Positions 8,658-28,881 of a stretch of DNA of 38,380 nucleotides are shown here, piece after piece. Where the stretch lies: contig CAZEDP010000002.1 in NCBI GenBank assembly GCA_964511035.1, positions 1 through 38,380 on the forward strand, written 5' to 3'. Origin of the DNA: an uncultured Gammaproteobacteria bacterium. Its GTDB lineage: Bacteria > Cyanobacteriota > Vampirovibrionia > Gastranaerophilales > CAZEDP01. The notes below the pieces were generated by a model. That model ran no database searches, was not told where the DNA came from, and saw only the letters and a program-made list of their open reading frames with translations. The translations under genes were made by a program, and so were the position numbers. Each line of letters begins with the position of its first letter. The first letter of the stretch is position 1.

Positions 8658-8668
8658 GGTAAATAAAT

Positions 8669-8974: not shown

Positions 8975-9288
8975 AGATAAATATGACAAATGAAGCATTA
9001 AATCATATTAAATTTTTAATAAATATGGCTAATGATTTTTTGAATAATAGAATTGATATAGAGGAATTTGATATTGAATATCAAGATTATTTTGAAAATC
9101 ACTCAAAAGAAATTTTAGAATATAATAAAGACGTTTATGAATATCTTGATCATATATATATGGGTGTTGAGTACTATGAATCTATTCCTGAGGCTAGAGA
9201 TCGCCCTTACTTTCTTGATGAGGACGGAGTGAGGAAGAGAACTAAAAGTGTTCTTGATGTATTGGCTGATAAATATAATTTGAGGTAA
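8971..9288 (+). CDS. ImmD-like small protein, paralogue 4 of 4
   Basis: GTGA overlap with the upstream gene. An internal ATG gives MTNEALNH. Roughly two-thirds identical by eye to 1685-2002, with an identical 3' end. Confidence 0.6.
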   Translation: MKINMTNEALNHIKFLINMANDFLNNRIDIEEFDIEYQDYFENHSKEILEYNKDVYEYLDHIYMGVEYYESIPEARDRPYFLDEDGVRKRTKSVLDVLADKYNLR

Positions 9289-11103: not shown

Positions 11104-11148
11104 TTGTTTTTGTAATTGATTAATTGCTATTTGGAATGGAAAAAATAC

Positions 11149-11691
11149 ATGATTAAATTTATCCCGATAAGAGCTGATTTTGAAAACGGGAAATTTGAGA
11201 ATCAGCAGTATTTGCCTTATATTTTAGAGACTTTTTATAAATATAAAGGCATTCTCACAGATGACTATTATCCTGAAAATAATTTCGAACTGCTCTCTCA
11301 AGTTATAGCCGAAATCAACGACCTGTACCCCTGGTTTTTGCTGTGCCTTTACGAAGGTAAGCCTGCCGGCGCGGCATGGGTTTCGCATTGGCATGGAAGT
11401 GAGAAGAAAATTCATTCCTGTCAAATTCAGTGCTTTGTAGATAAACAATACTGGGGAAGAAAAGCCGTTGAAATGGCTGATACGTTTTTAAAACTGCTCT
11501 TTGAAAACTACAAAATTGAAAGAATACAAATGGAAGTGCCGGAGCATAACGCCAGAGCTCGAGCTTTTGTCGAAAAGTTAGGCTTTGTCAAAGAAGGCAC
11601 AATAAGATGCGCAACATTAAAAAATAATAAACCTTTGAATCATATACTGTTTAGTAAACTGAAAGGAGAACATATATATGGGAAGAAGTAA
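11149..11691 (+). CDS. GNAT-family N-acetyltransferase (RimJ/RimL-like)
   Basis: Motif A-like region QYWGRKAVEMADTFLKLLFENYKIERIQMEVPEHNARARAFVEKLGFVKEGTIR. I prefer ATG 11149 over the TTG at 11116. The 3' end overlaps the next gene by 14 nt. Confidence 0.75.
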   Translation: MIKFIPIRADFENGKFENQQYLPYILETFYKYKGILTDDYYPENNFELLSQVIAEINDLYPWFLLCLYEGKPAGAAWVSHWHGSEKKIHSCQIQCFVDKQYWGRKAVEMADTFLKLLFENYKIERIQMEVPEHNARARAFVEKLGFVKEGTIRCATLKNNKPLNHILFSKLKGEHIYGKK

Positions 11692-13290: not shown

Positions 13291-13743
13291 ATGGTTGAAA
13301 TATGTTCGCCTGAAATGTTATACATAAAACTCGTTTCCGAGGGTTTTCCGATAAATTCCAACCTGTTTGCAACCAAGAACTTTAGGTGGAAAGAGTTGTT
13401 AATAAATCAAACCAAAGTTCCAACTCTGGCAGTAATCGTGAATTTGTTCAAAACAGCTTCTCTACTCCAGAAATACAGAGAGCTGATTTTTGAAAATTCC
13501 CCGATAATAATAACATCAGGTTGGAGATCAAAAGAATATAACAAAAAAATTGGCGGAGCTCCAAATTCATATCATATTCATGGCATGGCTCTCGACTTTG
13601 TTTGCACCAAGTTTTCCCCTCAGAAAGTACAAAAAAAATTAAATCCGGTTCATCAGGGGGGATTGGAGTTCGCACCCACATGGACACATATTGACATTAG
13701 AAAGGAAAGAACCAGATTTGACAGTAAAGGAAGGGTTGTGTAG
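13291..13743 (+). CDS. peptidase M15A-type (zinc D-Ala-D-Ala carboxypeptidase fold) endolysin
   Basis: SGWRSKEYNKKIGGAPNSYHIHGMALDF (H-x6-D) and a distal TWTHIDIR histidine: the Peptidase_M15_3 signature. Confidence 0.8.
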   Translation: MVEICSPEMLYIKLVSEGFPINSNLFATKNFRWKELLINQTKVPTLAVIVNLFKTASLLQKYRELIFENSPIIITSGWRSKEYNKKIGGAPNSYHIHGMALDFVCTKFSPQKVQKKLNPVHQGGLEFAPTWTHIDIRKERTRFDSKGRVV

Positions 13744-13903: not shown

Positions 13904-15298
13904 ATGAATTATATCGGCAACTTATCAGTTAATTTACCCAAAAAGAACACTTATTCTTCAGTTTCTTATCGCATAAATAACGGTTGCTCATTTAAAGAAA
14001 CCGTTTACATTAAAGAAAATTCTAAAAACCCTATGTATTTTTTGAATGCACGCAGACAAGAAGTAGCTCAAAAAAATCCTTATCAAGAAACAAATTATCT
14101 TCTAAATAATTTTAGAACAGAAGAGGGGTTGAGTTATAAAGATGAAATTACCAAACACATAATAAGAATACTTCCTGTTTCCGGTTCTATTGCTCCTCCG
14201 TCATTAGAAACAAAAATTAACGCAGATGAGTTCGTAGCAAATCAAAAATTTATGCCTGATTTCAAGTTAAAGCCTGAGTATCGTATTCTTGAACAAATAT
14301 CTGAAATTATGACTAACAACATCTCTTATGAAGCGGGAAAATCCTTGGAAACAGAATTTCCTGTAGAAATTGAGAAACTTTATGAACAATCTTTAAAAGT
14401 TAAAGAAAATACTTCTGAATTTGTGAATTTTACAAAAAATTTCTATGAATTTATGGCACAGGGTGCAACTTTTGAATTGAATACAGATAGATTAAAAGAA
14501 CTGGCACAATCAGATGAAGCAACCATTTTTATTACCAGACATGCGGGTGACGCTTTTGATTTGGCAAGGACAATGGGATTTGTATCAAAGCTTTATGAAG
14601 AATATGAAAAAAATGAAAATCCCGCAATTTACCCAAAAATGAACTACACAATTCTTAAAAGGAAAGTTGATTCATTTCCTGATAAATTGAGAGCTGTTGC
14701 CCTTAAAGCAGGTTTAGTCGGACTGGACAGTACTGCATATCCAACAAAAGAAAAGTTTGAATATAACAAAATAGCTAAAGATGAATTAGTAGATGATTTT
14801 ATTAAAAATAAAAGCCATATTTTTATGTTTCCTGAAGGAGCAAGGTATGATTATCGTGATAAATTAAAACCTTTGGACAGATTTCAATACGGCATTTCAA
14901 AAATAATAGTTAAATCTGCAAGAAAGAAAAAAAGAGTAAAAATTGTAACCCTTGGAATGGATAAAAGAGGAGGATTATACATTGGTAAACCTCTTTATTT
15001 TGAAAACAGAAACGGCGTTTTATATGTAAGCAAAGGGAATTTCACAACAGATTCTAAAATAGCTCAAGAAAACAGTTTCTTCAGGAATCTGGCTAAAACA
15101 AATGAAGATGAATTGAAACCTATTACATATGGAGGAAAAGAAATTAAAGATACTGATGCAAAAGGTTCTAAAGCTTTGGCAAGACTGGCATCAGGAATAA
15201 TTTCGGAAGACTTGGAAATTTCAATGAACACAGCCGAAAAATTATATAAAAACCTACAACATAATAATTTGACTGATTCTTATTATGGAGATAAATAA
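13904..15298 (+). CDS. hypothetical protein with a weak acyltransferase-like motif
   Basis: 464-aa ORF. FMFPEGARYDY resembles the PlsC-family FPEGTR block, but no clean HxxxxD motif is present (RHAGDAFD only). Confidence 0.3.
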   Translation: MNYIGNLSVNLPKKNTYSSVSYRINNGCSFKETVYIKENSKNPMYFLNARRQEVAQKNPYQETNYLLNNFRTEEGLSYKDEITKHIIRILPVSGSIAPPSLETKINADEFVANQKFMPDFKLKPEYRILEQISEIMTNNISYEAGKSLETEFPVEIEKLYEQSLKVKENTSEFVNFTKNFYEFMAQGATFELNTDRLKELAQSDEATIFITRHAGDAFDLARTMGFVSKLYEEYEKNENPAIYPKMNYTILKRKVDSFPDKLRAVALKAGLVGLDSTAYPTKEKFEYNKIAKDELVDDFIKNKSHIFMFPEGARYDYRDKLKPLDRFQYGISKIIVKSARKKKRVKIVTLGMDKRGGLYIGKPLYFENRNGVLYVSKGNFTTDSKIAQENSFFRNLAKTNEDELKPITYGGKEIKDTDAKGSKALARLASGIISEDLEISMNTAEKLYKNLQHNNLTDSYYGDK

Positions 15299-15451
15299 AT
15301 TCAATTAATTAAAGATAAAAAACTCGGATATTGTAGTTCTGGCAGCATTATTCTCTTAATTGAAAACAAAAAACAGGGTATTTACAGGGAAATTTATAAA
15401 CTATATTTCTGTGTTTGCCTTGAATTTAAATGAAAATGCTCCTTTAACCAT

Positions 15452-15542: not shown

Positions 15543-18500
15543 TTATGAATGCCAGGACATAGCAATAATATTCATCAACCCGGCATTTGCTTTGACAGCA
15601 TTAACACTGGTCAGACTAATGCCATTAGCAGCTGCATAAGCTGTCATGTCCTGAAGAATTAAGTTAACGTCCGTATTGGTTATGTAACTATTGTCGCTTA
15701 ATTGGATTTTTTCTATTTGTCCGCTTGCTGAATTCCAGTTTTTAACCTTGATTACATCAGCGTTTCCTGTTTCACCGTAATCCAAATATAAATTTCCGGC
15801 ATTATCTTTGAACATGGCAATGTTTGTTTTATCAACACTTGAACCAAATTTTATAACATCATCACCGCCGGTATCCTTGACCGTGTCTATGTTATCACCT
15901 TTCTCAAATACGTAAACATCATTTCCTCCACCGCCATTCAAATCATCGTTTCCTACTTCACCGATTAAAAGGTCATCTCCAAGTCCGCCGTCAATTTTAT
16001 CATCTCCTCCATTGCCGATTAAATTATCATTGTCTTTGTGACCGTTGATGGAATTATCGCCTGAATTGCCTAATATTGTATTACTGCCAGAATTTCCATT
16101 GGCATTGATATTATCAACTCCATTCATAGTCAGGTTTTCCACATTTTCGGGCAATGTATAACTGACGCCGGAAATTATTTCGTCCGTTCCCTCACCTGAA
16201 TTTTCAGTAACAATGTCACCGTTATTATCAACGTAATAGACGTCATCTCCGCCGCCGCCTGCCATAATATCAGCACCGCTTCCGCCGTCTATAACATCAT
16301 CTCCTCCGGTTCCGATCAAACTGTCATCAGAATCAGAGCCTTCAATGACCGCAAATAAGCTTTCAATGTCTGCGGAGGTTAATGAAGATCCATCGGCAAA
16401 TTCTAATTTTTCGATTTTGTTCTCAGCAACTAATTGATTTGTAATCAGTATGCTGTCCTGTGTCAAATTGCCATCCGCATCTTTTAGCGTAATCAAAACA
16501 TCATAATCTGATACAGATTTTGTTATAACCAAATCATTCTGAGTAATTCCTTCACCGAATACTATTTTGTCATCAGCTCCTGCATCAAACCATGAAAATC
16601 CTTCACTATCACTGTCAAATATTGTATCCTGACCGTCGCCTCTGTTAAATATATATGTATCGTTATCGCTTCCACCGCCGAGAAGGTCATCACCGGTTCC
16701 TCCGGTTAGTATATCATTTCCGTAACCGCCTTCTAAATCATCACTGCCGTTTTCTCCGTAAAGAAAATCATCTCCGTCATCGCCATAAAGTGTGTCATCT
16801 CCTTCACCGCCGTATATGTTATCAGTACCGCCTCCGGCATAGAGGGAGTCATTTCCGCCGTTTCCGTAAATATCTTCATTGGTAGTTGAACCGAATATTG
16901 TATCGGCTTCGTCAGTGCCCTGTTTAATAATCTTTCCATAGGTTATTATCGACTCGACATCATCGCAGGAAATACTGCTTCCGTTAGCAAATTCAAAGGT
17001 TTCAATTCTATAATTTGCAGAGGATTCATATTGATATTGCACTATAATCTGGTCATTGGATAGTCCGTTAACAGGGTCTTTGATTTTAACTAACAGATCG
17101 AGATTTTGTTTTTCAAACGACAAATTATCAAGGGTGATTCCTTCTCCGAACCTGATTGTATCCGTCCCGTAGTTCTCTCTGATTTTGTCCTGACCGTCTC
17201 CGATATTGAAGACATAGACATCATCTCCGGAACCGCCAATTAGCTCATCATTGCCCGTGCCGCCGTTTAATATATCGTTTCCGGAACCGCAGTTTAAAAT
17301 GTCATCACCTGCTTCGCCGTAGATGGTCATGCTGCCGGTATAATATCTCCATAATGAATTGGTATGATAACTCCAGACATAATCATTTCCGTCACCGCAG
17401 TAAACTGTATCATTACCGTCCCCTACATCTATAAAGTCATTTCCTTCTCCACCGTACAGCATGTCATCTCCGCCGTTACCCTGCAAATTATCATCACCTG
17501 ATTCGCCGTAAATCCTGTCACCGAAATTACTGCCGCTGATTGTATCATTTCCTGACGTGCCGTGTGTTGAAAATGTGCTTTCCAGTTCGTCTGACGTTAA
17601 CACCGTTCCGTCAGCAAATTCAAAGTTCTCTATCCTTGATAATCTTGTATCCCAATAGTCTTTAACGAAATATTCGTACAACTCAATCTTATCTGTGCTG
17701 TTTTTATAGGTAATCTCCAAACTGGCTCCGTTAACGCTGAAATTAAGGTCATCCAGCGTTATTCCTTCTCCGAACCTTATAGTATCATTTCCATAGCTTT
17801 CCCTGATTTTGTCCAGACCGTCTCCGATATTGAAGACATAGACATCGTCTCCGGAACCGCCCATCAACTCATCATTGCCCGTGCCGCCGACCAATAAATC
17901 ATTCCCCGGTCCGCAGTTTAAAATGTCATCGCCTGCTTCGCCGTATATGGTCATGCTGCCGGTATAATATCTCCATAATGAATTGGTATGATAACTCCAG
18001 ACATAATCATTTCCGTCACCGCAGTAAACTGTATCATTACCGTCCCCTACATCTATAAAGTCATTTCCTTCTCCACCGTACAGCATGTCATCTCCGCCGT
18101 TACCCTGCAAATTATCATCACCTGATTCGCCGTAAATCCTGTCACCGAAATTACTGCCGCTGATTGTATCATTTCCTGACGTGCCGTGTGTTGAAAATGT
18201 GCTTTCCAGTTCGTCTGACGTTAACACCGTTCCGTCAGCAAATTCAAAGTTCTCTATCCTTGATAATCTTGTATCCCAATAGTCTTTAACGAAATATTCG
18301 TACAACTCAATCTTATCTGTGCTGTTTTTATAGGTAATCTCCAAACTGGCTCCGTTAACGCTGAAATTAAGGTCATCCAGCGTTATTCCTTCTCCGAACC
18401 TTATAGTATCATTTCCATAGCTTTCCCTGATTTTGTCCAGACCGTCTCCGATATTGAAGACATAGACATCGTCTCCGGAACCGCCCATCAACTCATCATT

Positions 18501-20606
18501 GCCCGTGCCGCCGACCAATAAATCATTCCCCGGTCCGCAGTTTAAAATGTCATCGCCTGCTTCGCCGTATATGGTCATGCTTCCCGTATAGTATCTCCAA
18601 GAAGAATTAGCATGATAACTCCAGACATAATCATTTCCGTCACCGCAGTAAACGGTATCTTGCCCTGCTCCTACGTCAATGCTGTCATTTCCTTTTCCGC
18701 CGTACAGAGTGTCATCACCTTCCCAGCCTTTTAGGGCATCCGCAAAAGACATTCCGATAAATACTTGTACACTGCCGTTAAGAATATCATAATGTTTTTG
18801 GTCTATTTTCCCTTCGAAAAGAGTGTAAGGCATGTTTCCTTCGTCGCTCAGCGTTTTTAAGATTAAACTCATATAATCTTTGCCGATATCGGTTTGAGAA
18901 TTCATCTGTTCGGCAATACTGTTTACAGCAGACGAAATATCTGAAGGAAAGATTATTTTATCGGATGCGAGATCGTACTGAGCCTCGCTAAAAGAACCGG
19001 CAAGCTGACTTTGCGCAACAAAATGAGCAAACATAAGGTCTCTTAGTTTTTTATAAGACATATCTATGTTACCAATAACTTCTGAAATCAGCGGAACCTC
19101 TGTTGAAAATTCGTCAGTGCTGCCGGGAGGATAGTATTTGTATACTTCTCCCATAAACTTTTCGAGTATCGAGAGTTTCCTGTCATTATAATAAGGTCCC
19201 CTTCCCGCATTGATGTCCACATCATCCACCCCTGCCCATTTAGCAAGAAGCTCATCCATTGCGGAACACACTTCTGATAAGTCAGTCAGGTTTGTCATTT
19301 CTGAAACAAAGTCTTTTAATTCGGGATTTTCGCTCATTGCGATTGAGAGGTCTTTTACATCCCCGTAGCCTTTTAATAAAGGCAGTCCGATAATTGAAGC
19401 ATCCAGAACAATCGGACCCGTTGTAACAGAGTTAATTTGATTAATTAATAAATTCACATCGGCGGCTGTTTGTGTCCTTCCGTCGGAATAAGTGAAGGTC
19501 GAAACTTCCGAAATGAGATTTTCGTTATTAAGTTGGTTTACACTTGCAGGGTTGAGGTTAATTGACGTTATACCCAAATCCGATAAGGTATTTACTTCAT
19601 AGCTCTCTGCAATTCCGTTTCCGTCAATATCACGCCAGACTTTAATTTGATTGAATATTTCATCGTTTGCGTCAATGATGTTATCGTTATTGGTATCATT
19701 GGTTTTCATTTCTTCAAAGCCTGTTATTTCAGGGCTTCCGAATAGTTCGCTAATCCCGTCAATCTGACCGTTATTATTCCCATCAACGACAAGTATCCCG
19801 TTATTTGGGCTTATCCAACCGACTCTTTCTGCTATGCCGTCTCCGTCGAGGTCAAAATAAGCATTTGAATTTGTAATGGCTATTGTCTCAATTCCGCCAC
19901 CGTCAAGGTCTATAACCAACGGGTCAAGCCTTGTATGGACACTGTTATTATAACAAAACTGTGCGGAGTTGATTACAGGGTTGAGGGATGGGGGTATAAC
20001 CGGTTCCATGTCTGGCAGCCAGTCGCCGGGGGCAAATTCTCCCTCGCCAGGGATGGTCAGTAAGTCACCGGGCTTGATGAGGACAAAAGACTTATCGGCA
20101 TTCGTCCTGTCGGCAAGCCAAGGGTTGGCAGAGAGCAGTTCGTCAAGGGTTTTGTTGTGTTTTTGGGCAATCGCCCATAAAGAGTCTCCCGATTTGACAG
20201 TGTAAAAAGAATTTAGCTCATAACCAGTGTCAGATAGAGAATTTTCATTATAATTATTCTCACTTTTTAATTTTTCAAAAATGCTGTCACATGTTGTTTT
20301 TATTGCCCCTTCACTTTGTAAATTCCAAGTATTTATACTATAAAAAACATAACCCGCTGTAGCAAGGGAAATCGCCCCACACCCAAATGTACCGGTTCCT
20401 AACGTAGATGCCTCACAATAAGCAAAAACTACCGTACCTGTTGCTAATGAAGTCGAAATTTTAATATCTTGAAGACCATTTTGAACCAATGCTTCAGAGA
20501 TGTTACAAGTTAAAGCTTGAGTAGCATCACTTTTGTCATCTCTAATTTTCATGCTTGTTATTAAAAGTTCTAAAATATCAGTAAATACTTTTAAATAATT
20601 TTCCAT
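15543..20606 (-). CDS. giant RTX-repeat exoprotein with N-terminal hydrophobic Gly-rich segment and LysM domain
   Basis: 1687 aa. LysM at aa 135-185 (YTVKSGDSLWAIAQKHNKTLDELL...IKPGDLLTIP, nt ~20052-20204). PLVIDLDGGGIET / FDLDGDGIAE / DGNNNGQIDG block typical of large RTX proteins. Dozens of GGxGxD nonapeptides (e.g. GGTGNDELMGGSGDDVYVF). Confidence 0.9.
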   Translation of the reverse strand: MENYLKVFTDILELLITSMKIRDDKSDATQALTCNISEALVQNGLQDIKISTSLATGTVVFAYCEASTLGTGTFGCGAISLATAGYVFYSINTWNLQSEGAIKTTCDSIFEKLKSENNYNENSLSDTGYELNSFYTVKSGDSLWAIAQKHNKTLDELLSANPWLADRTNADKSFVLIKPGDLLTIPGEGEFAPGDWLPDMEPVIPPSLNPVINSAQFCYNNSVHTRLDPLVIDLDGGGIETIAITNSNAYFDLDGDGIAERVGWISPNNGILVVDGNNNGQIDGISELFGSPEITGFEEMKTNDTNNDNIIDANDEIFNQIKVWRDIDGNGIAESYEVNTLSDLGITSINLNPASVNQLNNENLISEVSTFTYSDGRTQTAADVNLLINQINSVTTGPIVLDASIIGLPLLKGYGDVKDLSIAMSENPELKDFVSEMTNLTDLSEVCSAMDELLAKWAGVDDVDINAGRGPYYNDRKLSILEKFMGEVYKYYPPGSTDEFSTEVPLISEVIGNIDMSYKKLRDLMFAHFVAQSQLAGSFSEAQYDLASDKIIFPSDISSAVNSIAEQMNSQTDIGKDYMSLILKTLSDEGNMPYTLFEGKIDQKHYDILNGSVQVFIGMSFADALKGWEGDDTLYGGKGNDSIDVGAGQDTVYCGDGNDYVWSYHANSSWRYYTGSMTIYGEAGDDILNCGPGNDLLVGGTGNDELMGGSGDDVYVFNIGDGLDKIRESYGNDTIRFGEGITLDDLNFSVNGASLEITYKNSTDKIELYEYFVKDYWDTRLSRIENFEFADGTVLTSDELESTFSTHGTSGNDTISGSNFGDRIYGESGDDNLQGNGGDDMLYGGEGNDFIDVGDGNDTVYCGDGNDYVWSYHTNSLWRYYTGSMTIYGEAGDDILNCGPGNDLLVGGTGNDELMGGSGDDVYVFNIGDGLDKIRESYGNDTIRFGEGITLDDLNFSVNGASLEITYKNSTDKIELYEYFVKDYWDTRLSRIENFEFADGTVLTSDELESTFSTHGTSGNDTISGSNFGDRIYGESGDDNLQGNGGDDMLYGGEGNDFIDVGDGNDTVYCGDGNDYVWSYHTNSLWRYYTGSMTIYGEAGDDILNCGSGNDILNGGTGNDELIGGSGDDVYVFNIGDGQDKIRENYGTDTIRFGEGITLDNLSFEKQNLDLLVKIKDPVNGLSNDQIIVQYQYESSANYRIETFEFANGSSISCDDVESIITYGKIIKQGTDEADTIFGSTTNEDIYGNGGNDSLYAGGGTDNIYGGEGDDTLYGDDGDDFLYGENGSDDLEGGYGNDILTGGTGDDLLGGGSDNDTYIFNRGDGQDTIFDSDSEGFSWFDAGADDKIVFGEGITQNDLVITKSVSDYDVLITLKDADGNLTQDSILITNQLVAENKIEKLEFADGSSLTSADIESLFAVIEGSDSDDSLIGTGGDDVIDGGSGADIMAGGGGDDVYYVDNNGDIVTENSGEGTDEIISGVSYTLPENVENLTMNGVDNINANGNSGSNTILGNSGDNSINGHKDNDNLIGNGGDDKIDGGLGDDLLIGEVGNDDLNGGGGNDVYVFEKGDNIDTVKDTGGDDVIKFGSSVDKTNIAMFKDNAGNLYLDYGETGNADVIKVKNWNSASGQIEKIQLSDNSYITNTDVNLILQDMTAYAAANGISLTSVNAVKANAGLMNIIAMSWHS
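17190..18730 (-). repeat. 624-bp (208-aa) tandem repeat, ~2.5 units, inside the giant RTX gene
   Basis: CGATATTGAA anchors at 17201, 17825 and 18449 give a period of 624. About 17290-17957 and 17914-18581 are near-identical, and exact from ~17323. The flanking partial units are more diverged. Confidence 0.9.
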
Positions 20607-20652: not shown

Positions 20653-21498
20653 TTATAATGAATTAGCTTCTTTTAATTTATTTTGTTTAAGATACAACAA
20701 CCTCAAGTCATTTATTACGGAAGATTTTTTTTCTTGTTTGTAATTGCCATATGCCGTAATTGAACTTATATAAGCTTTTTCAGCACCAGAATAATTTTTC
20801 TCAATTTCATAGATATAACCTAAAAATGCTAGTGTATCAGCATAATCAATATTTCTATTTTTTATTTTATAAAAATCCATTGCTTTAAAACAAATTGCCT
20901 CAAGCTTGTCAAACTTCTTTTGTTTAAAATACAAAATTATTAAATTTTTTAATATTGAATCATATAAGAAATCAGGACTTTCTTTACTGTATTGGGAGAA
21001 ATTATCACTATTAGAAAGACTATCCTCATAAGTTTTTAACGCTTTCAGAAAATACGTTTCGGCTTCATTATATTGTTTTCTAGTCAAATTCAAGCACCCA
21101 AGTCGATCATAGACTGCAACCACACTAATATGAAATTCACCAAACTGCTTAATCCTCGATTCCAATAAAGTTTGATACAAATTATTTGCTTTTATATACT
21201 TTTCCTCATCAGAAAAAAGCTGAGCTAATTCAAAAATTATTATTGATTTTTTAAAGTTTGTATCGTGATTATAATTTGTTGCCAATGCCTTAAGGCTTTC
21301 ATTGTAATTTTCTTCCGCTATTTTGCCGAATTTAGTTTGGTGATTCTCTTGATATATTTTATGGGCATTTCTTGCTATGAAATAGTGAATATCAAAAGAA
21401 TAATAATTCCAGATTGTTGGAAAAGAATAAACAACCAAAATAACAAATAATATCACTGATAGTATTTTAAAAAATTGATTTTTACTAATATTTTTCAT
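20653..21498 (-). CDS. membrane-anchored TPR-like protein (immunity/accessory candidate)
   Basis: I prefer the start at MRMKNIS or MKNIS (21504 / 21498), just after the AAAGGGG RBS in the conserved spacer. N-terminal TM helix FFKILSVILFVILVVYSF. TPR-like units (YNEAETYFLKALKTYED, YSGAEKAYISSITAYGN). Confidence 0.6.
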   Translation of the reverse strand: MKNISKNQFFKILSVILFVILVVYSFPTIWNYYSFDIHYFIARNAHKIYQENHQTKFGKIAEENYNESLKALATNYNHDTNFKKSIIIFELAQLFSDEEKYIKANNLYQTLLESRIKQFGEFHISVVAVYDRLGCLNLTRKQYNEAETYFLKALKTYEDSLSNSDNFSQYSKESPDFLYDSILKNLIILYFKQKKFDKLEAICFKAMDFYKIKNRNIDYADTLAFLGYIYEIEKNYSGAEKAYISSITAYGNYKQEKKSSVINDLRLLYLKQNKLKEANSL

Positions 21499-21500
21499 TC

Positions 21501-21958
21501 TCATCCCCTTTATATATCTATCATCAAAACTTACTATAATAATAAAATATTCTAATTTCAATAAATATTTGAATCGTTTTCTATATCACATGCCGAGTTC
21601 AAGCCGCTAACCTTTCTAAATCCTCAATTGGTCTGAACAGATACGCACTCCCGTCGGATGTTTTTATAAAATCCACAGCCGGAGCAGTTTTGTTCTGTGC
21701 ATTTTTTAGGAATTGGTTGATAACGGTAATTGAATCATCGGGTGAATCAGGGAAAGTCATTACCAGATTGTCTCCGTCTCTTGTACATTTCACATCGGTA
21801 AAGTTGCTCCCGTAGCCGAAAGAAATCGAGTTGCCTCCCGACAAATCGTTTATTATATCGTGTCCGTCCCCTCGATTGAAAACATAATCATCCGCGCCAT
21901 CACCGCCTGATAATACGTCATTGCCTGTTCCGCCGACAAGGGTGTCGTTACCGGCTCC
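21501..21958 (-). repeat. ~458-bp near-identical repeat (copy 1): 3' end of an RTX effector gene plus downstream spacer
   Basis: Aligns at a 4220-nt offset with 25721-26178, with only scattered mismatches by eye. Confidence 0.9.
21533..21561 (-). promoter_or_regulatory. putative sigma70-type internal promoter in the conserved spacer
   Basis: On the minus strand: TTGAAA, 17 nt, TATAGT. The AAAGGGG RBS of the downstream gene follows. Confidence 0.45.
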
Positions 21959-22855
21959 GCCTATAAGCAAGTCGTTTCCAGTTCCACCGTATAGTTTGTC
22001 ATTTCCTCCACCACCATTTAATGTTTCTCCGCTGATATTCCAAGCATAGAGTATATTATCGTTACTATCCCCTTCACTAGGGAAATGTAATAATTCGTCT
22101 TGTTTTAATAAGACATAAAGATGGTCTTGATTTACATAAAGACCTCTATCTTGACCTACGATCCACGAATTATTTTTTTCCATAGTGTATATAAGCCAAT
22201 CCAGAGGAGCATCATCATAACCTGGTGTGAAACCTCTATTTCCTAGCTCACGATATATATCGTTTACAGAAACTAATTCATACGTATCTAAACCATTTGC
22301 TATATAAATATGATTTATTCCTCTATCAAGAATACCACTATATTTAATGTAGTCTTTTATGTCATTGAGAGATTCAGCCATATTTAAGTGTATAACTAAG
22401 GTTCCTGATAATTCAGCAGCGCTATACAGTCCCCCATAAAGCCTGTCATATTCTTCCTTGATTTTTGTTTTTCTAAAATCATCAGCTATTGCAGTTTGGT
22501 AAGTTGATCCGATAAGAGAAACCAGACTGCCTATTACAGGAATAAGTTGACCTACTGTCGTAGTAATAGAACCAATTGTCAAGTTTTGCTTGAGGTTATT
22601 AATTTCTATCTGATATTCTTCTTCGGAAAGCTTTGTAAAATTAATTTTATACTCTGACAGCAATACCGAATATACTGTGCCAACAACAGCAAATGGACGA
22701 GGAATGAAAGCTTGAGCAATATATGAAAGAGTTGTTGCTAAGTCTTGTTCTGGATAATTAAGTATTGGGTTTAGATCATAGTTTACAGAAGGCTGTTGTG
22801 AAAGATTAATATCATCTGGAGTTATACAGCTATTATTTTGAACAATGTTTAGCAT
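21599..22855 (-). CDS. RTX effector with unknown N-terminal domain (hydrophobic Gly/Ser/Thr-rich helices)
   Basis: 418 aa. The N-terminal ~290 aa have no recognised motif but contain IGSITTTVGQLIPVIGSLVSLIGSTY. Then come GGGGNDKLYGGTGNDLLIGGAGNDTLVGGTGNDVLSGGDGADDYVF and a C-terminal ~100 aa identical to that of 25819-27240. Confidence 0.8.
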   Translation of the reverse strand: MLNIVQNNSCITPDDINLSQQPSVNYDLNPILNYPEQDLATTLSYIAQAFIPRPFAVVGTVYSVLLSEYKINFTKLSEEEYQIEINNLKQNLTIGSITTTVGQLIPVIGSLVSLIGSTYQTAIADDFRKTKIKEEYDRLYGGLYSAAELSGTLVIHLNMAESLNDIKDYIKYSGILDRGINHIYIANGLDTYELVSVNDIYRELGNRGFTPGYDDAPLDWLIYTMEKNNSWIVGQDRGLYVNQDHLYVLLKQDELLHFPSEGDSNDNILYAWNISGETLNGGGGNDKLYGGTGNDLLIGGAGNDTLVGGTGNDVLSGGDGADDYVFNRGDGHDIINDLSGGNSISFGYGSNFTDVKCTRDGDNLVMTFPDSPDDSITVINQFLKNAQNKTAPAVDFIKTSDGSAYLFRPIEDLERLAA

Positions 22856-22856
22856 T

Positions 22857-23993
22857 TTATTTCTCCTTTAAAACTCTTTTTACTTTTTCTAATTGGTCAT
22901 ATTGCTTCAATGTTTTAAGATCTCTCAGGTATAAATCTTTTATAATTTCAATAGTGGGATTTTTCATATCTGACTGCTTTTTTATAATATATTCGATATA
23001 ATCTTTAAAATCAGGATTGTTTCGACATTTATATGTAATTGGAATCATCAATGGATAAGTACTTAGCGCATCCATACTCAATCTCATTTTTAAGCCATAA
23101 CTCAAAGTGCCTTGATTTGCGAAATAATAATCTCTAATCTCTTTATCGGAATCAGCAAATACTTTCAGGAATATATCATTGCAATCCAGCTTATAGTTAT
23201 AAAACTTAGCCTGTAATATCGAAAGAGAAAAGTCATGTCTTAATTTTGCTCCCCAAATTTTGCTGTTAGAAACAAAATAATCATAAGAGTCTTTTTCATA
23301 TTTTTTTGAGTAATCAACAAGGTTTATATAAATGTTATAAACCTTGTCATATTTTTGAGCGTGATTTATAGCGGGATACATTCCTTCTCTTCTAAATGGA
23401 CCCCATTTACCTTGTTTTTCTGCTCTTAATTCTCCAGATAAGCAGTTATCTATATCCTGACTTAATATTGCCAAGTTAACAAAAAGTGCTAGTTTTTGTT
23501 TTCCAAATTCTTTATCTGTAATTTTAGCTTTTGCCATAGGTTCTATATGGCTATATAGTTCATTATTCCACATAATAAAATCATTAACTTTACTGTATAG
23601 ATATTTTTTGGGATATTTATTTAAGGTATATTCAAATAATTTATCCTCAACAAGTTCTCTAAACTCTGCATATCTGATTTTGTACCACCATATCTCTTTT
23701 TCCCCCTCATTTTTTGGGAATTTTGATAAACCTGTATTGTATAATTTATCTCTTACAAAGTAAAAAGGTTCAGTAACAGGATGATCCCATCTTGTTAGAT
23801 GAGATAAAGGAAAAATATAGAGTTCATTTATTTTCTCTGCTGAGAGCATGTATGTTCTTGCTGAAGCAAAAGAGTTATTCATAGTTGCATTAACTATTCC
23901 AGTGAAAACTATAAAGTTAAAAACTATAAAACATAGGACTATAACGGCAATAGTTGCAGTTAATAAATATATTTTTTTTATTATCTTTTCCAT
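22857..23993 (-). CDS. membrane-anchored hypothetical protein; first full gene of module 2
   Basis: 378 aa with N-terminal TM helix YLLTATIAVIVLCFIVFNFIVFTGIV. Its stop lies 1 nt before the effector ATG. Confidence 0.55.
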   Translation of the reverse strand: MEKIIKKIYLLTATIAVIVLCFIVFNFIVFTGIVNATMNNSFASARTYMLSAEKINELYIFPLSHLTRWDHPVTEPFYFVRDKLYNTGLSKFPKNEGEKEIWWYKIRYAEFRELVEDKLFEYTLNKYPKKYLYSKVNDFIMWNNELYSHIEPMAKAKITDKEFGKQKLALFVNLAILSQDIDNCLSGELRAEKQGKWGPFRREGMYPAINHAQKYDKVYNIYINLVDYSKKYEKDSYDYFVSNSKIWGAKLRHDFSLSILQAKFYNYKLDCNDIFLKVFADSDKEIRDYYFANQGTLSYGLKMRLSMDALSTYPLMIPITYKCRNNPDFKDYIEYIIKKQSDMKNPTIEIIKDLYLRDLKTLKQYDQLEKVKRVLKEK

Positions 23994-23994
23994 C

Positions 23995-24093
23995 TTATTC
24001 CCCTCTCTTATTCCAACCTAAACTGTTGTAAACAAATTCCAGCTCACTTCGAACTAATATCATAAATACTAATTTTTTACTCAACACTTTCAT
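23995..24093 (-). pseudogene. 32-codon remnant of the Kelch-gene 5' end, acting as an upstream ORF
   Basis: Manual translation gives MKVLSKKLVFMILVRSELEFVYNSLGWNKRGE*. Its first ~12 codons match MKVLSRKLVFVL of 27277-28434, and the same GAGGAGAAGG RBS is present. Its stop lies 1 nt before ATG 23993. Confidence 0.6.
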
Positions 24094-24272
24094 TTCCTTC
24101 TCCTCAAATCTGTATAAATACTCATTCTCGCTGTAAAACCTACCTTAATTAATAACCTAACCTTTCCCTCCATGCTGTGCGATAAATATAATTCTAGTTA
24201 TTATACAGAATCATCATCTCATTTGCCATAAAATCTTGAGATTCATTTTCAAATATTTACAAGGTTTTGAAG
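24064..24272 (-). repeat. ~210-bp duplicated promoter/leader region (copy 1)
   Basis: Aligns with 28405-28612, e.g. CTCATTCTCGCTGTAAAACCTA...CCTAACCTTTCCCTCCATGC...GCGATAAATATAATTCTAGTTATTATACAGAATCATC...CAAATATTTACAAGGTTTTGAA. Confidence 0.85.
24200..24228 (-). promoter_or_regulatory. putative promoter of module 2
   Basis: Minus strand: TGGCAA, 17 nt, TATAAT. The sequence is conserved in both leader copies, but the -35 element is weak. Confidence 0.3.
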
Positions 24273-24327
24273 TTTTTGGATAAATGCGGCTATTTATATA
24301 CATCGTTTTCTATATCACATGCCGACC

Positions 24328-25128
24328 TTACGCCGCTACTTTATAACAAAACTGCGCGGAGTTGATTACAGGGTTGAGGGCAGGGGGTATAACGGGTTCC
24401 ATGTCGGGCAGCCAGTCGCCCGGGTCAAATTCTCCCTCGCCAGGGATGGTCAGTAAGTCGCCGGGCTTGATGAGGACAAAAGACTTATCGGCATTCGTCC
24501 TGTCAGCAAGCCAAGGATTAGCTGTCAGCAGTTCGTCAAGGGTTTTGTTGTACTTTTGGGCTAAATTGCCAAAAGTTAAAAAGGATGCGAGCATTCCTTC
24601 AATTCCTGTCAAAGTATTTATAACACCTTCTTGAAAATAATTTGCAATACTCAATAGATCATCTATATGAAATAGATTTGCAGTAATATCAAGCTTTCCA
24701 TCTGCTTTATAATCCCAATATATAGTATCACATAAGGCTGAACTAGCAGTCCAAGTTGCATCAAGACACCTGCCAACTACAAGTCCAACAACTGCACTTG
24801 CCATAAATGCAGCACCTCCTGTTAAACCTGCAGTCACTCCCATAGTGATAGCAACAGTTCCCACTCCTGTAACAGTAGCCTGAAATACATTTTCAGTTTG
24901 CAAGCTTACTGCAATATCTATTAATGACATGGTAGCTGCATTAAAAAATCTTACCCCTTTTATCAAGCCAGGTCCATTTTCGCCAACTTCCAAAATTGCC
25001 TCTCTAATTGCTGCTGGATATCCCCCAATCGTAACATTTACTATATCTTGTAATGTTGGCTGAAGAGGATTTGCATTATTTGTTGTCGTTACATTAGTTG
25101 AACCAGAAGTCATAAATATATTCTCCAT
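24328..25128 (-). CDS. Gly-rich hydrophobic N-domain protein fused to a truncated LysM/linker segment (chimeric paralogue of the giant RTX N-terminus)
   Basis: 266 aa. VTGVGTVAITMGVTAGLTGGAAFMASAVVGLVVG segment. The last ~76 aa (NKTLDELLTANPWLADRTNADKSFVLIKPGDLLTIPGEGEFDPGDWLPDMEPVIPPALNPVINSAQFCY) are near-identical to aa ~151-226 of the giant protein. The nt repeat is 24341-24568 = 19948-20175. Confidence 0.7.
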   Translation of the reverse strand: MENIFMTSGSTNVTTTNNANPLQPTLQDIVNVTIGGYPAAIREAILEVGENGPGLIKGVRFFNAATMSLIDIAVSLQTENVFQATVTGVGTVAITMGVTAGLTGGAAFMASAVVGLVVGRCLDATWTASSALCDTIYWDYKADGKLDITANLFHIDDLLSIANYFQEGVINTLTGIEGMLASFLTFGNLAQKYNKTLDELLTANPWLADRTNADKSFVLIKPGDLLTIPGEGEFDPGDWLPDMEPVIPPALNPVINSAQFCYKVAA

Positions 25129-25134
25129 TAAGTA

Positions 25135-25716
25135 TTAAAATCTTTTGCCCGATAATTCCTCAATTTTATCCTTAAATTCCTGCCAATTTGATATTGAATC
25201 CATAGGTATGAGTTTCCCTTGTACGGTTTTTAAGTAAAAAACAGGATATACAGGATTCTTATCTACCCTAATAAAATCTATATCGGAGTATTCTATATTC
25301 AAAGAACCAAAAAGCTTATCCAAAAGAGGAAAAGCAGGCAGGATTAATATTCTAATATTTGTCAAAACCGCAATTTTAGAATAAATCGCTAATATCGTGA
25401 GAATTGAAATAGCTATCATTACTGTAAATATAAAAATGAAGGTTCCTGTTAGCACGCTAATTTTTTGGAAATCAGTATTGATCCAGAATGGTAATATATA
25501 GCCTACACCACAACCAATTAATAAAGGAACAAGATAATCTAACATTAATGTAAATTTTGGGATATATTTGATTTCTTCATTTTCTTTTAAATTATTTTTT
25601 ATTCTTTTAAAACCCAAAGATCTTAAATAAGGTCTAAAAGGTAATATTAAAGCCAAAAATATGATCCCTGTTAATGCCATTAACCTACCTAATTCTGCAT
25701 TTAACATTTCTTGCAT
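25135..25716 (-). CDS. polytopic membrane protein (candidate lipase immunity/accessory)
   Basis: 193 aa with about 4 hydrophobic helices (LMALTGIIFLALILPF, LVPLLIGCGVGYILPFWI, LTGTFIFIFTVMIAISILTILAIY). Preceded by the conserved spacer, promoter and AAAGGGG RBS. Confidence 0.6.
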   Translation of the reverse strand: MQEMLNAELGRLMALTGIIFLALILPFRPYLRSLGFKRIKNNLKENEEIKYIPKFTLMLDYLVPLLIGCGVGYILPFWINTDFQKISVLTGTFIFIFTVMIAISILTILAIYSKIAVLTNIRILILPAFPLLDKLFGSLNIEYSDIDFIRVDKNPVYPVFYLKTVQGKLIPMDSISNWQEFKDKIEELSGKRF

Positions 25717-25720
25717 TTTC

Positions 25721-26178
25721 TCGTCCCCTTTACATATCTATCATCAAAACTTACTATAATAATAAAAATTTCTAATTTCAATAAATATTTGAATCGTTTT
25801 CTATATCACATGCCGAGTTCAAGCCGCTAACCTTTCTAAATCCTCAATTGGTCTGAACAGATACGCACTCCCGTCGGATGTTTTTATAAAATCCACAGCC
25901 GGAGCAGTTTTGTTCTGTGCATTTTTTAGGAATTGGTTGATAACGGTAATTGAATCATCGGGTGAATCAGGGAAAGTCATTACCAGATTGTCTCCGTCTC
26001 TTGTACATTTCACATCGGTAAAGTTGCTCCCGTAGCCGAAAGAAATCGAGTTGCCTCCCGACAAATCGTTTATTATATCGTGTCCGTCCCCTCTGTTGAA
26101 AACATAATCATCCGCGCCGTCACCGCCTGATAATACGTCATTGCCTGTGCCGCCGACAAGGGTGTCGTTACCGCCCCC
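25721..26178 (-). repeat. ~458-bp near-identical repeat (copy 2)
   Basis: See 21501-21958. Confidence 0.9.
25753..25781 (-). promoter_or_regulatory. putative sigma70-type internal promoter in the conserved spacer
   Basis: Minus strand: TTGAAA (25776-25781), 17 nt, TATAGT (25753-25758). Confidence 0.45.
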
Positions 26179-27240
26179 GCCATCTAATAAATCATCACCA
26201 ACTCCGCCGATAAGTATATCATTACCACCTAAGCCCGCGAGAATATCATTGCCACCGTTACCATAAATGATGTCACAACCAATCACATTATCTATTCCTA
26301 TTAGGGATTGTGAACCAGCCGTACCATTCTCGTCTTTATCTGTTCCAATAATTATATCTTTGAAATCATTTATTCGGTAATGTAAAACACTTTTAATATA
26401 TTGAGGCATGCTTTCGAGAATATTTACTGCATTTAGTAAATCGTTTTCGAAAACTCTGGTTTTTAGTACTGAACCTAAAACTTGGTTATTTATATCATAA
26501 GCCCATAATGCCCATGCTTCTTTAGTGCCAAATTCAAGAGGCTTGCTAAATATAGGACCAAAATTTTGTTCAGAATACTTTAATATGCTAAAGTGGGTAT
26601 CATCATTTAAAGCTCCCAGAAATCCATTTTGTATTGGCTGAGGTGCAATATAATAAGTATAACCTAGATGTGCTCTTAAATTTCCGACATAATCGTTCAT
26701 TATAACAAAATTTGTAATATTATCTTGTGAATCATAAACGAATTCTATGTTTGGATCATCGGTGATTAAACGAACCTGTCCCATGTAATAGGGATTACTA
26801 TATAATTCCTGTAATAGGTCTTGAACTCCAGGAGCATTATAAGTATATGCAGTTGTATTTGTACAAGCACCGACCAGCTGTGCTAAAGCCCCTCCAAGTG
26901 AATGGCCGGTAATTGTTATATTAGCTCCAGGGTATTGTTCTTTTGCACATTCATACAACCATAATGCATCATAAAATTGATTCATGACTTGATTAAAAAG
27001 AATTGCGCCATCATTTACAACTAAATCATCCCAACTTATATCTGTCCCTCTAAATGCAACGACTATATCATTTGGGTCATTATCATTTTGGTAAATAGCG
27101 CCAGCAAAACCTCTATCAGTTATATAATATTTTTCTTGATTAATATATACTTGTGTATAATAAGTTGGTCTAGCAGTCTCATTCTCACCCCCATATACAG
27201 CTCGAGCTAGATTCATATAATCTTCATAGATTTCGGACAT
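25819..27240 (-). CDS. class-3 / family I.3-like lipase fused to RTX repeats
   Basis: Nucleophile elbow ITITGHSLGGALAQLVG. Then GNGGNDILAGLGGNDILIGGVGDDLLDGGGGNDTLVGGTGNDVLSGGDGADDYVF and the shared C-terminal module. Confidence 0.85.
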   Translation of the reverse strand: MSEIYEDYMNLARAVYGGENETARPTYYTQVYINQEKYYITDRGFAGAIYQNDNDPNDIVVAFRGTDISWDDLVVNDGAILFNQVMNQFYDALWLYECAKEQYPGANITITGHSLGGALAQLVGACTNTTAYTYNAPGVQDLLQELYSNPYYMGQVRLITDDPNIEFVYDSQDNITNFVIMNDYVGNLRAHLGYTYYIAPQPIQNGFLGALNDDTHFSILKYSEQNFGPIFSKPLEFGTKEAWALWAYDINNQVLGSVLKTRVFENDLLNAVNILESMPQYIKSVLHYRINDFKDIIIGTDKDENGTAGSQSLIGIDNVIGCDIIYGNGGNDILAGLGGNDILIGGVGDDLLDGGGGNDTLVGGTGNDVLSGGDGADDYVFNRGDGHDIINDLSGGNSISFGYGSNFTDVKCTRDGDNLVMTFPDSPDDSITVINQFLKNAQNKTAPAVDFIKTSDGSAYLFRPIEDLERLAA

Positions 27241-27276: not shown

Positions 27277-28434
27277 CTACTCAATAAGTGCTTCAATTAA
27301 GGGATTTTTATTCCCTCCAATAATTAATAATTTGCCATTTTGCAGATCCACCAGATTAGGGTTTGAACGCGGCAAAATCATATATCCTACAAATTTGAGT
27401 TTGTGAGTCACAGGGTCAAATTCTTGAATATCTCTTAAACTGTGAATTTTCCAAGCTATACCAGTCGAACCTCCAATTATCAGGACTTTGCCGTTTGGTA
27501 ATACCTTTGTGGCAAAGCTTGCTCTATCATCAAGGTATCCTATTGTTTTAAACAAGCCGGTTTTAGTATTATATAGTTCTATTTCTTTAACACGCCATTG
27601 TTTATTGTTATAACCTCCTAAAACCAAAACATTTCCGTCATTAAGTAATACCATAGTCAAATAACCACGGTTAACATTTAGATTTCCTGTTGGATAGAAC
27701 TTATTTGTTTTGGGATTATATATTTCAGCCTTATTACTATAATCACCTGATTTATCTCCACAAACTCCGCCACCTGCGATTAAAACTCTGCCATCAGTTA
27801 ATAAGACTGCTGAATGTCTCCACCTTCTTGGATAAACCATACCACTAGTTAAATCAAATCTTTTTCCATTCGGATCATACAGTTCAGCTTTATTTGGACA
27901 GGTTCTATATTTATTAATAATTGGACCTGCACTTCCTCCAATTATTAATACCTGCCCGTCATTTAGTAAAGTTGCCGTATGTTCTGCATGGGTATAATTA
28001 AGTTTACTTCCATTTTTAAATTCTTGTGTTTTACTGTCAAATAATTTAGTTTCATTAACGTCATTACTATGTAAGTCCCTACCCCCAGCAATCAGGACAT
28101 TACCATTAGAAAGAAGTGTCGCTGTAAAATCAGATTGATTTATTGAATTATCATAAAGCCCCATGTAATGAGATTTTTTAGTTTTCGGATCAAATATTTC
28201 AATTGTATCTGTTTTAACTGAACCATATTGACTACTATCTTTAGATTCTATTTCACCTCCCATTGTTAAAATTTTCCCGTCATTTAGTTTTATAGAATGA
28301 CTATTAAACCTTGCATAAAACATCTTTCCTGCAGGCTTTGTAATCACATCTTTGTTATTTTTGTAATTTATAATAATAGATACCAGCGTAATGACTATCA
28401 GTACAAATACTAATTTCCTACTCAACACTTTCAT
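27277..28434 (-). CDS. membrane-anchored Kelch-type beta-propeller protein
   Basis: I prefer ATG 28434 (MKVLSRK), with a GAGGAGAAG RBS, over the TTG at 28458. N-terminal TM helix. Repeated blades: ATLLSNGNVLIAGG, ATLLNDGQVLIIGG, SAVLLTDGRVLIAGG, MVLLNDGNVLVLGG, KVLPNGKVLIIGG, DLQNGKLLIIGG. Confidence 0.8.
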   Translation of the reverse strand: MKVLSRKLVFVLIVITLVSIIINYKNNKDVITKPAGKMFYARFNSHSIKLNDGKILTMGGEIESKDSSQYGSVKTDTIEIFDPKTKKSHYMGLYDNSINQSDFTATLLSNGNVLIAGGRDLHSNDVNETKLFDSKTQEFKNGSKLNYTHAEHTATLLNDGQVLIIGGSAGPIINKYRTCPNKAELYDPNGKRFDLTSGMVYPRRWRHSAVLLTDGRVLIAGGGVCGDKSGDYSNKAEIYNPKTNKFYPTGNLNVNRGYLTMVLLNDGNVLVLGGYNNKQWRVKEIELYNTKTGLFKTIGYLDDRASFATKVLPNGKVLIIGGSTGIAWKIHSLRDIQEFDPVTHKLKFVGYMILPRSNPNLVDLQNGKLLIIGGNKNPLIEALIE

Positions 28435-28612
28435 TTTCTTCTCCTCAAATCTATACAAATACTCATTCTCGCTGTAAAACCTAGCTCCTAAAAAATCCTA
28501 ACCTTTCCCTCCATGCCTGTGCGATAAATATAATTCTAGTTATTATACAGAATCATCCTCACATTTGCCATAAGATATTGAGATTCTTTTTCAAATATTT
28601 ACAAGGTTTTGA
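28405..28612 (-). repeat. ~210-bp duplicated promoter/leader region (copy 2)
   Basis: See 24064-24272. This copy includes the intact Kelch start and the TATAAT box at 28542-28547. Confidence 0.85.
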
Positions 28613-28669
28613 ATTATGCGGTTTGGGTTTTAATGTACCGAAAATTAAATATACGTTATGTATTATTGT

Positions 28670-28695: not shown

Positions 28696-28729
28696 GTGTC
28701 GATAATTTAACTTTAAATTATAAAAAACT

Positions 28730-28816
28730 CGGAGGAGGGGGGATTCGAACTCCCGGTGGCCTTGCGACCACGACGGTTTTCAAGACCGCTCCTTTAAACC
28801 ACTCAGGCACTCCTCC
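28730..28816 (-). tRNA. tRNA-Ser (anticodon UGA), class II with long variable arm
   Basis: The reverse complement reads GGAGGAG-TG-CCT..AGG-A-GCGGT-CTTGAAA-ACCGT-(CGTGGTCGCAAGGCCACC)-GGGAG-TTCGAAT-CCCCC-CTCCTCC-G. It has a 7-bp acceptor stem, a 3-bp D stem and a TTCGAAT T-loop. There is one A-C mismatch in the T stem, and no encoded CCA. Confidence 0.85.
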
Positions 28817-28881
28817 AAGAGTATAACTATATTACTATATAAGCTAAATTAATGCCAACAGATTTTTTTTGAAAATAAAAA

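Follow-up and report, generated by a model that had tools for sequence, protein, structure and literature searches.

We analyzed a window of 38,380 nt, which comprises the whole contig, from an uncultured bacterium. From position 1 to ~13.8 kb it carries a podovirus-like prophage with genes for a major head protein (4279-5121), an SU10-type adaptor (6358-7077), a virion protein or amidase-like protein (9628-11103), a GNAT (11116-11691) and an M15 endolysin (13291-13743); neither an integrase nor a terminase gene lies on the contig. A ~300-nt unit occurs four times in the prophage, at 1372-1985 and 8658-9271; its copies are 73-80% identical and make up two pairs of adjacent ORFs (101 and 105 aa). 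Farther along lies a tRNA-Ser(UGA) gene (28729-28817, minus strand): to its right are the housekeeping genes gltX, cysS, mini-RNase III, mazG and those for M16 peptidases, and directly downstream of it, all on the minus strand, are two tandem units that contain the RTX genes described here. The best PDB match of the GluRS comes from Thermotoga and is of no taxonomic use.

Unit 2, next to the tRNA gene, opens with a block that we call U (28613-28405), followed by the gene for a Kelch beta-propeller of 385 aa with an N-terminal signal-anchor (27277-28434), the gene for a 473-aa lipase that joins a class-3/Mbeg1-like head (GHSLGG) to RTX repeats and a cap (25819-27240), a shared module and spacer, TM193 (193 aa, three hydrophobic segments; 25135-25716) and an ORF of 266 aa (24328-25128). 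In unit 1 the order is U (24271-24064), a 32-aa remnant ORF (23995-24093) ahead of the gene for p378, a 378-aa protein with an N-terminal TM anchor (22857-23993), the gene for a 418-aa RTX protein built of an orphan N-domain (residues ~1-265), RTX repeats and a cap (21599-22855), the same module and spacer, TPR302, a TPR protein with an N-terminal TM anchor (20653-21498, probable start MKNIS), and a 1687-aa FrpC-like RTX protein (15543-20606). The gap between p378 and the 418-aa gene is 1 nt.

The two smaller RTX genes end in a direct repeat of 464 nt with an offset of 4220 nt, copy A at 21498-21961 and copy B at 25718-26181, which differ at 10 positions (97.8% identity); the extents given in the preliminary description (21501-21958 and 25721-26178) are essentially correct. 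Copy A comprises the last ~120 codons of the 418-aa protein, its stop codon and a ~100-nt spacer, and in copy B a matching module and spacer follow the lipase head and reach to the ATG of TM193. On the coding (minus) strand, the 5' edge of the repeat falls within the RTX nonapeptides of both ORFs, and the 3' edge coincides with the ATG of the next gene, the TPR gene after copy A and TM193 after copy B. The coding part of copy A consists of RTX nonapeptides plus a cap, with the C-terminus ...EDLERLAA. Six of the mismatches are synonymous changes at the 5' coding edge and four lie in the spacer; the central 324 nt are identical. Upstream of the repeat, the 418-aa and 473-aa proteins are unrelated except for generic GGxGxD repeats, which bears out the earlier observation of unrelated heads in front of a near-identical tail.

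The spacer carries an RBS (AAAGGGGA) that is conserved in both copies before the ATG of the following gene, as had been noted. Promoter-like matches such as the good promoter claimed for the same spacer (TTGAAA-17-TATAGT) number 40, and shuffled sequence leads one to expect 44, so that this motif occurs at chance frequency. We found no terminator on the coding strand of the spacer and no indication that it forms a structured RNA (z-score 0.45, no Rfam match). Because the window holds no inverted repeats, an integron- or shufflon-type site is unlikely. The post-stop motif recurs as a third, partial copy (~37 nt) at 24302-24338, after the 266-aa ORF; a scan of metagenome and viral contigs for the 24-nt motif gave 0 matches, in a collection that evidently lacks the motif-bearing JGI sample.

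Besides the repeat, the two units have two further conserved blocks in common, which had escaped the first reading. Over 208 nt the U blocks (28405-28613 vs 24064-24271) are 91% identical: copy 2 holds a promoter-like ATGGCA-18-TATAAT with TG, a 5'UTR, an ATG and the first ~10 Kelch codons, and copy 1 holds the same promoter, 5'UTR and ATG, which here opens the 32-aa remnant ORF. The third block, of 221 nt, encodes LysM (24341-24561 vs 19948-20168, 93% identity). Between the blocks the genes are unrelated: Kelch faces p378, the lipase head faces the orphan head, and TM193 faces the TPR gene. Since unrelated genes thus lie between conserved flanks, the variable piece, from U to the module and spacer, consists of a partner gene plus the head of an RTX protein. 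The units number two, and cassette exchange is read from this one comparison together with an analogous locus (L022, below).

A repeat of this kind invites the question of whether it was made by the assembler. Short-read Logan contigs are indeed interrupted at the edges of the repeat (L006 stops at 21514, and L008 begins at 25763). Against this, both head-to-module junctions and the module-to-downstream-gene junction recur in independent assemblies from four samples: copy B and both its junctions in L007 (ENA ERR1823511), L009 (JGI 3300022666) and L010 (Logan ERR14947319), and the head-to-module junction of copy A in L006 (Logan SRR8925823). Copy A is confirmed in L006 only; L006 matches the window at 100% identity, and the two may come from the same sample. 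In addition, copies A and B retain 10-16 diagnostic differences. Because the junctions are reproduced in the assemblies of other samples, an assembly duplication, which the preliminary description had named as a possible flaw, is excluded, and we consider the chance of a duplication or chimera of this origin to be negligible.

Comparison with these samples also reveals how the near-identity may have arisen. Just six positions (25993, 25992, 25959, 25904, 25837 and 25832) distinguish the window from L007, L009 and L010 in 2.4-3.7 kb of compared sequence; all of them lie inside copy B, and at 6/6 the window's copy B has the copy A base. On both flanks of this tract B-specific sites are kept (26176-26094 and 25769-25723). 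The minimal tract is thus 162 nt long (25832-25993, minus strand), and its full length is below 326 nt, a limit set by the bounding B-specific sites 26094 and 25769. One of the six changes alters the C-terminus of the lipase-RTX protein, from EKLAA to ERLAA. The 162-nt tract is the footprint of an A-to-B gene conversion, unless the assembler switched paths between the repeat copies, which could produce the same pattern. With this proviso, the six-site footprint agrees with the recent recombination or gene conversion that had been proposed.

The same kind of homogenization is seen elsewhere. In L022, tandem Kelch-lipase units have gene bodies that are 76-87% identical and a junction that is 97-99% identical; this homogenized junction consists of the last ~12 codons (KVSFSIAA*), the intergenic DNA and the region upstream of Kelch. 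L022 is an independent lineage with junction homogenization of the same type. Within the giant RTX gene of the window, the stretch 17127-18674 consists of three tandem 624-nt repeats, 86-91% identical, which encode near-identical RTX and HCBP units; they suggest internal concerted evolution like that between the two small RTX genes.

Rather than a special address tag, the shared module is a generic RTX building block, a beta-roll with its cap, of the CyaA block V type. RTX nonapeptides (PF00353) are matched above the cutoff in both proteins (E = 1.7e-12 for the 418-aa and 1.2e-9 for the 473-aa protein). The closest solved relatives of the module are CyaA RTX block V and its cap (5CVW; phmmer E = 5e-5), and it matches PF06594 (HCBP_related) weakly (E = 0.009). 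An AF2 model of the module, built from a small alignment (pLDDT 86, pTM 0.82), superimposes on 5CXL with a TM score of 0.78 and an rmsd of 3.4 Å, and next in the Foldseek ranking are T1SS family I.3 lipases (2ZVD, 2QUA). Together, the 5CVW match and the 5CXL superposition place a capping structure C-terminal to the last RTX block.

The distribution of the module points the same way. An exhaustive phmmer search against 1.84 billion representatives gave 7,407 matches; nearly all of the best 150 belong to giant proteins, in each of which 8-39 stretches match (35-49% identity). The module also aligns to five internal units of the neighboring 1687-aa protein (32-41% identity). It had been presented as a dedicated C-terminal address module, a view that is hard to maintain for an ordinary RTX and HCBP-like unit repeated in this way. 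The suggested search for more genes ending in it returned, at high identity (96%), only the two window proteins among these representatives; a word-indexed search gave 4 weak matches, and the best match in a scan of GTDB genomes, in a Gastranaerophilales MAG, is 45% identical. With no third high-identity carrier, and with the head of the 418-aa protein an orphan, the proposed family of swappable N-termini is not borne out.

How are these proteins likely to leave the cell? A scan of hydropathy showed no N-terminal hydrophobic signal segment in either the 418-aa or the 473-aa protein. The CyaA cap nucleates a Ca2+-driven folding from the C- to the N-terminus and works as a Brownian ratchet in type I secretion; residues 1631-1647, within this cap, have a part in secretion, which does not require the last 24 residues (PMC8953716). 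The match to CyaA RTX block V and its cap supports the earlier view that the tail is of the kind in which type I secretion determinants reside. Because a CyaA-type cap is combined with the lack of an N-terminal signal segment, the type I route is the likeliest for both proteins, and we infer that they are most likely exported by a T1SS (ABC/MFP/OMF) encoded elsewhere in the genome. The search for cognate transporter genes that had been recommended was run on the 38-kb contig, and none of its scanned ORFs encodes an ABC, MFP or OMF component, a result that applies to the window only.

The end of the module deserves separate consideration. It stops within the helix that comes first behind the cap; the giant protein, L021, L001 and P0002 continue with a tail of ~28-45 aa that is missing here, and a match to an RTX-hemolysin profile stops at position 879 of 930. 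Because of this missing tail and the early end of the profile match, the module's competence for export is putative. Uncleaved C-terminal secretion signals, which the ABC transporter recognizes, form a class without sequence consensus; the module lacks the tail seen in the giant, L021 and P0002, but CyaA, too, can do without its last 24 residues. Substrates of the T1SS protease and HasA type terminate with an acidic residue and then hydrophobic ones. The C-termini of proteins from this type of neighborhood are hydrophobic-Ala-Ala (RLAA, KVAA, LLAA, SIAA): in the window they are encoded at 21602-21613, 25822-25833 and 24331-24342, and they are also found in the lipase genes of L021 and L022, including the RTX-less lipase of L022. 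Among lipase-family C-termini, AA is found in 8/101 and A in ~25/101, counts that are uncorrected for phylogeny or truncated sequences. Such an end could be a terminal signal for export or stability.

The head of the 473-aa protein matches PF01764 (31.1 bits, cutoff 22) and PF11187 (22.5 bits, cutoff 21.1) and has a nucleophile elbow of the GxSxG form (GHSLGG, residues 111-116); it is a predicted alpha/beta hydrolase of the class-3/Mbeg1-like family. Homologues of this head occur with RTX repeats (P0156, P0157, P0160, P0163, P0164, P0173 and P0244), alone, or with XVIPCD (the distant homologue P0217). The gene upstream of the lipase is the one that travels with it: at the lipase-RTX locus L021 there is an upstream signal-anchored Kelch protein (33% identity over 404 aa, E = 8e-48), and at the lipase loci of L022 an upstream Kelch is present in two Kelch-lipase pairs. 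The genes downstream of the lipase vary or are missing at divergent loci. In a search of the block proteins against PHROGs, the Kelch protein alone gave a strong match, to phrog_16216 (E = 4e-55), a phage family of unknown function; similar propellers are encoded by phages.

The downstream genes had been taken as immunity genes, TM193 among them. In at least two other samples (L009 and L010), TM193 is interrupted after codon 8 (window position 25691/25690; L009:3712-3834, L010:2857-2886), and the lipase gene there is intact. The inserted foreign DNA opens with TGACCTGAACCCC and encodes MKKSRFTEEQIIRILK, which resembles the N-terminus of an IS3-family OrfA; both contigs end inside this element. 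The immunity assignment does not survive this interruption next to an intact lipase, the conserved neighbor of the lipase being the upstream Kelch gene, and what is found at the locus differs in this respect from the downstream, co-conserved cognate immunity gene of classical polymorphic toxins. Because TM193 is interrupted and the upstream Kelch gene is linked to the lipase in other lineages, the upstream gene is the likely cognate partner of the lipase. By its linkage to the lipase gene, Kelch is a candidate for an immunity or accessory role; the searches detected no immunity-type family.

The corresponding genes of unit 1 have fewer relatives. The N-domain of the 418-aa protein contains one weak Gly-rich hydrophobic segment and, at 229-263, before the RTX repeats, a weak LysM-tail-like stretch. 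No homologue of this head was found by sequence search and no match in the PDB, and its single-sequence AF2 model has a pLDDT of 37.8, too low to be of use. The p378 protein gave no match to known families.

The giant protein of unit 1 is organized as an N-region, LysM, a self-processing module (SPM), five RTX/HCBP units and a C-terminal tail. Its SPM matches 6SJW (E = 2.6e-28) in an alignment that begins at P229, with D228 just before it, so that an Asp-Pro autocleavage site is predicted at D228-P229 (~19920-19925, minus strand). These features mark it as an FrpC-like "clip-and-link" protein, here from an uncultured bacterium of low GC content. The 266-aa ORF of unit 2 combines a Gly/Ala-rich hydrophobic segment with the LysM block in common with the giant and ends in CYKVAA*; its homology to the giant runs through LysM and the linker to "SAQFCY", 9 residues short of D228. 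It resembles a truncated paralogue of the giant or, alternatively, the giant's clipped N-fragment encoded as a protein of its own.

The position of the block beside the tRNA gene bears on its origin. In a relative at ~82% nucleotide identity (which includes NCBI GCA_964643065.1), homology ends exactly at the 3' end of tRNA-Ser. A different prophage occupies the same tRNA-Ser 3' end in this relative (L011:6717-8393, L012:1755-3431), with genes for a large serine recombinase, DUF2924, a terminase and a ParB-methylase. The tRNA-Ser gene is evidently an integration hotspot in the lineage, as judged from these contigs. Because homology breaks at the tRNA gene and relatives carry different cargo there, the RTX block is strain-specific DNA at a tRNA hotspot. 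A direct repeat of ~30 nt (15298-15328 and 28704-28733) with a 14-nt exact core (ATAAAAAACTCGGA), the last 5 nt of which equal the tRNA-Ser 3' end, brackets 13.4 kb of RTX block and may be an att-like duplication bounding an islet. A boundary at this repeat is only tentative, since U-like promoter DNA also lies beside tRNA-Ser in the relative L014; no integrase was found within the 13.4-kb block. The promoter part of U (28526-28613; extended -10, TGTATAAT) is conserved beside tRNA-Ser in this relative (L014:893-980). There, the U-like promoter and a terminator are kept, and an unrelated 157-aa gene lies downstream of that promoter, which suggests that the U promoter may be a resident one that captures different downstream cargo.

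It is instructive to compare this arrangement with known systems. The small RTX proteins resemble RTX/T1SS proteins (CyaA block V, 5CVW and 5CXL; the MIS38 lipase of Pseudomonas; LipA of Serratia) in their GGxGxD repeats, beta-roll and cap, in having an N-terminal head, and in lacking an N-terminal signal peptide. They differ in that they stop at the terminal helix of the cap, have no transporter genes nearby and are exported by prediction only; from the family I.3 T1SS lipases they differ also in their class-3/Mbeg1-like head. In the giant, the FrpC-type SPM is shared with the FrpC/FrpD system of Neisseria meningitidis, in which an upstream lipoprotein binds an N-terminal fragment of FrpC, and at the window locus, too, membrane-anchored partner genes lie upstream of RTX genes. 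Here, in contrast, the two small RTX proteins have no SPM, and no FrpD homologue was detected.

The preliminary description saw the locus as a mirror image of polymorphic toxins. The reversed polarity is real: instead of a conserved N-terminal trafficking region and a variable C-terminal toxin, the window proteins have a variable N-terminus and a conserved C-terminus, and no Rhs, CdiA or other trafficking domain is present in them. Conserved blocks flank unrelated cassettes as in polymorphic toxin, CDI and Rhs loci, and recombination between tandem copies is plausible; the differences are the polarity, the candidate partner upstream and a number of cassettes limited to two. The polarity is not new, however: X-Tfe effectors of the Xanthomonadales T4SS carry a conserved C-terminal XVIPCD behind variable heads, with an immunity gene upstream (PMC6759196), and lipase-head homologues are among the proteins with this domain (P0217). 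The window pair shares with them a variable enzymatic head, a conserved C-terminal domain and an upstream partner gene. It differs in that its C-terminal domain is an RTX cap, which implies another secretion route, and in that the partner is only a candidate immunity protein; XVIPCD (PF20410) is absent from both window proteins.

Taken as a whole, the locus is probably best explained as tandem paralogous operon-like units with a gene-converted RTX tail, likely T1SS export and a cognate partner encoded upstream. Each unit would consist of U, a membrane-anchored partner, an RTX protein, the spacer, a membrane protein and a LysM-bearing protein. U, the RTX tail with its spacer, and the LysM segment would stay near-identical as the intervening DNA is replaced by unrelated sequence, the replaced piece being the partner plus the RTX head (Kelch and lipase in unit 2, p378 and the orphan head in unit 1). 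The common tail of 111-125 aa forms a calcium-binding beta-roll with a CyaA-block-V-type cap, a unit that nucleates folding from the C- to the N-terminus outside the cell and in CyaA contains secretion determinants. Gene conversion between the tandem copies would maintain the near-identity, perhaps helped by selection that keeps both tails compatible with a single transporter, and the spacer would be co-converted because it lies inside the homology block, rather than because of a dedicated promoter. Of these elements the repeat, the mosaic, the fold of the module, the conversion footprint, the linkage of Kelch to lipase and the interruption of TM193 are observed; T1SS export and any role as toxin or immunity protein are inferred.

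Other readings were weighed against this one. According to the preliminary description, a dedicated T1SS address module follows swapped toxin heads, and each effector has its own independently transcribed downstream immunity gene (TM193, TPR302). The identical tail and spacer behind unrelated heads would fit, as would the RBS and TTGAAA-17-TATAGT match conserved in both spacers, the membrane proteins encoded downstream and the use of the lipase-head family in antibacterial T4SS effectors. We nevertheless hold this account to be very unlikely: its promoter belongs to a class of matches found at chance frequency, TM193 is interrupted where the lipase is intact, it is the upstream Kelch gene that is conserved with lipase-RTX homologues, and the module is a generic RTX unit that no third protein carries. 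What stands of the earlier interpretation is the RTX export or folding tail and the gene conversion; the special module, the wider family of heads and the downstream immunity genes do not, and the architecture has precedents.

Antagonism may also play no part at all. The proteins would then be ordinary exoenzymes or surface proteins (a T1SS lipase comparable to those of family I.3, a small RTX protein and an FrpC-like protein) in a duplicated, decaying variable region, the tail would reflect a recent duplication with neutral gene conversion, and the membrane proteins would be passengers. T1SS lipases with RTX tails are indeed classical (as the Foldseek matches 2ZVD and 2QUA recall), the region is strain-variable and lies beside a tRNA gene and a prophage, signs of decay are visible (the 32-aa remnant ORF, the truncated 266-aa paralogue and the interruption of TM193), and there is no detected immunity-type family. 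Yet the linkage of Kelch and lipase recurs in three divergent lineages, in two cases as tandem arrays, and this recurrence points to a functional pair and not to passengers; moreover, the sharp alternation of ~91-98% identical with unrelated blocks is unlike simple duplication and decay. On balance, we consider this account possible but unlikely. At the other extreme, the locus could be a T1SS counterpart of polymorphic effector-immunity arrays, in which two-gene cassettes (an upstream periplasm-facing immunity protein and an effector head) are exchanged by homologous recombination between two handles, U on one side and the RTX cap with its spacer on the other; Kelch would be a new class of lipase immunity protein, and the hydrophobic-Ala-Ala end, present even on an RTX-less paralogue, would be part of the export signal. 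This proposal is speculative, and we rate it as decidedly doubtful.

Returning to the tandem units with a gene-converted tail, the locus is at present mainly a clean natural case in which gene conversion homogenizes tandem RTX genes of an uncultured bacterium at their functional 3' end and regulatory junction, and the assignment of the partner gene is corrected from the downstream to the upstream position. If the exchange of two-gene cassettes should prove true, T1SS substrates would diversify like polymorphic toxins, with the polarity reversed; the RTX cap would serve both as an export and folding module and as a recombination handle, and a secreted phospholipase-like enzyme would have a Kelch propeller as its conserved partner.
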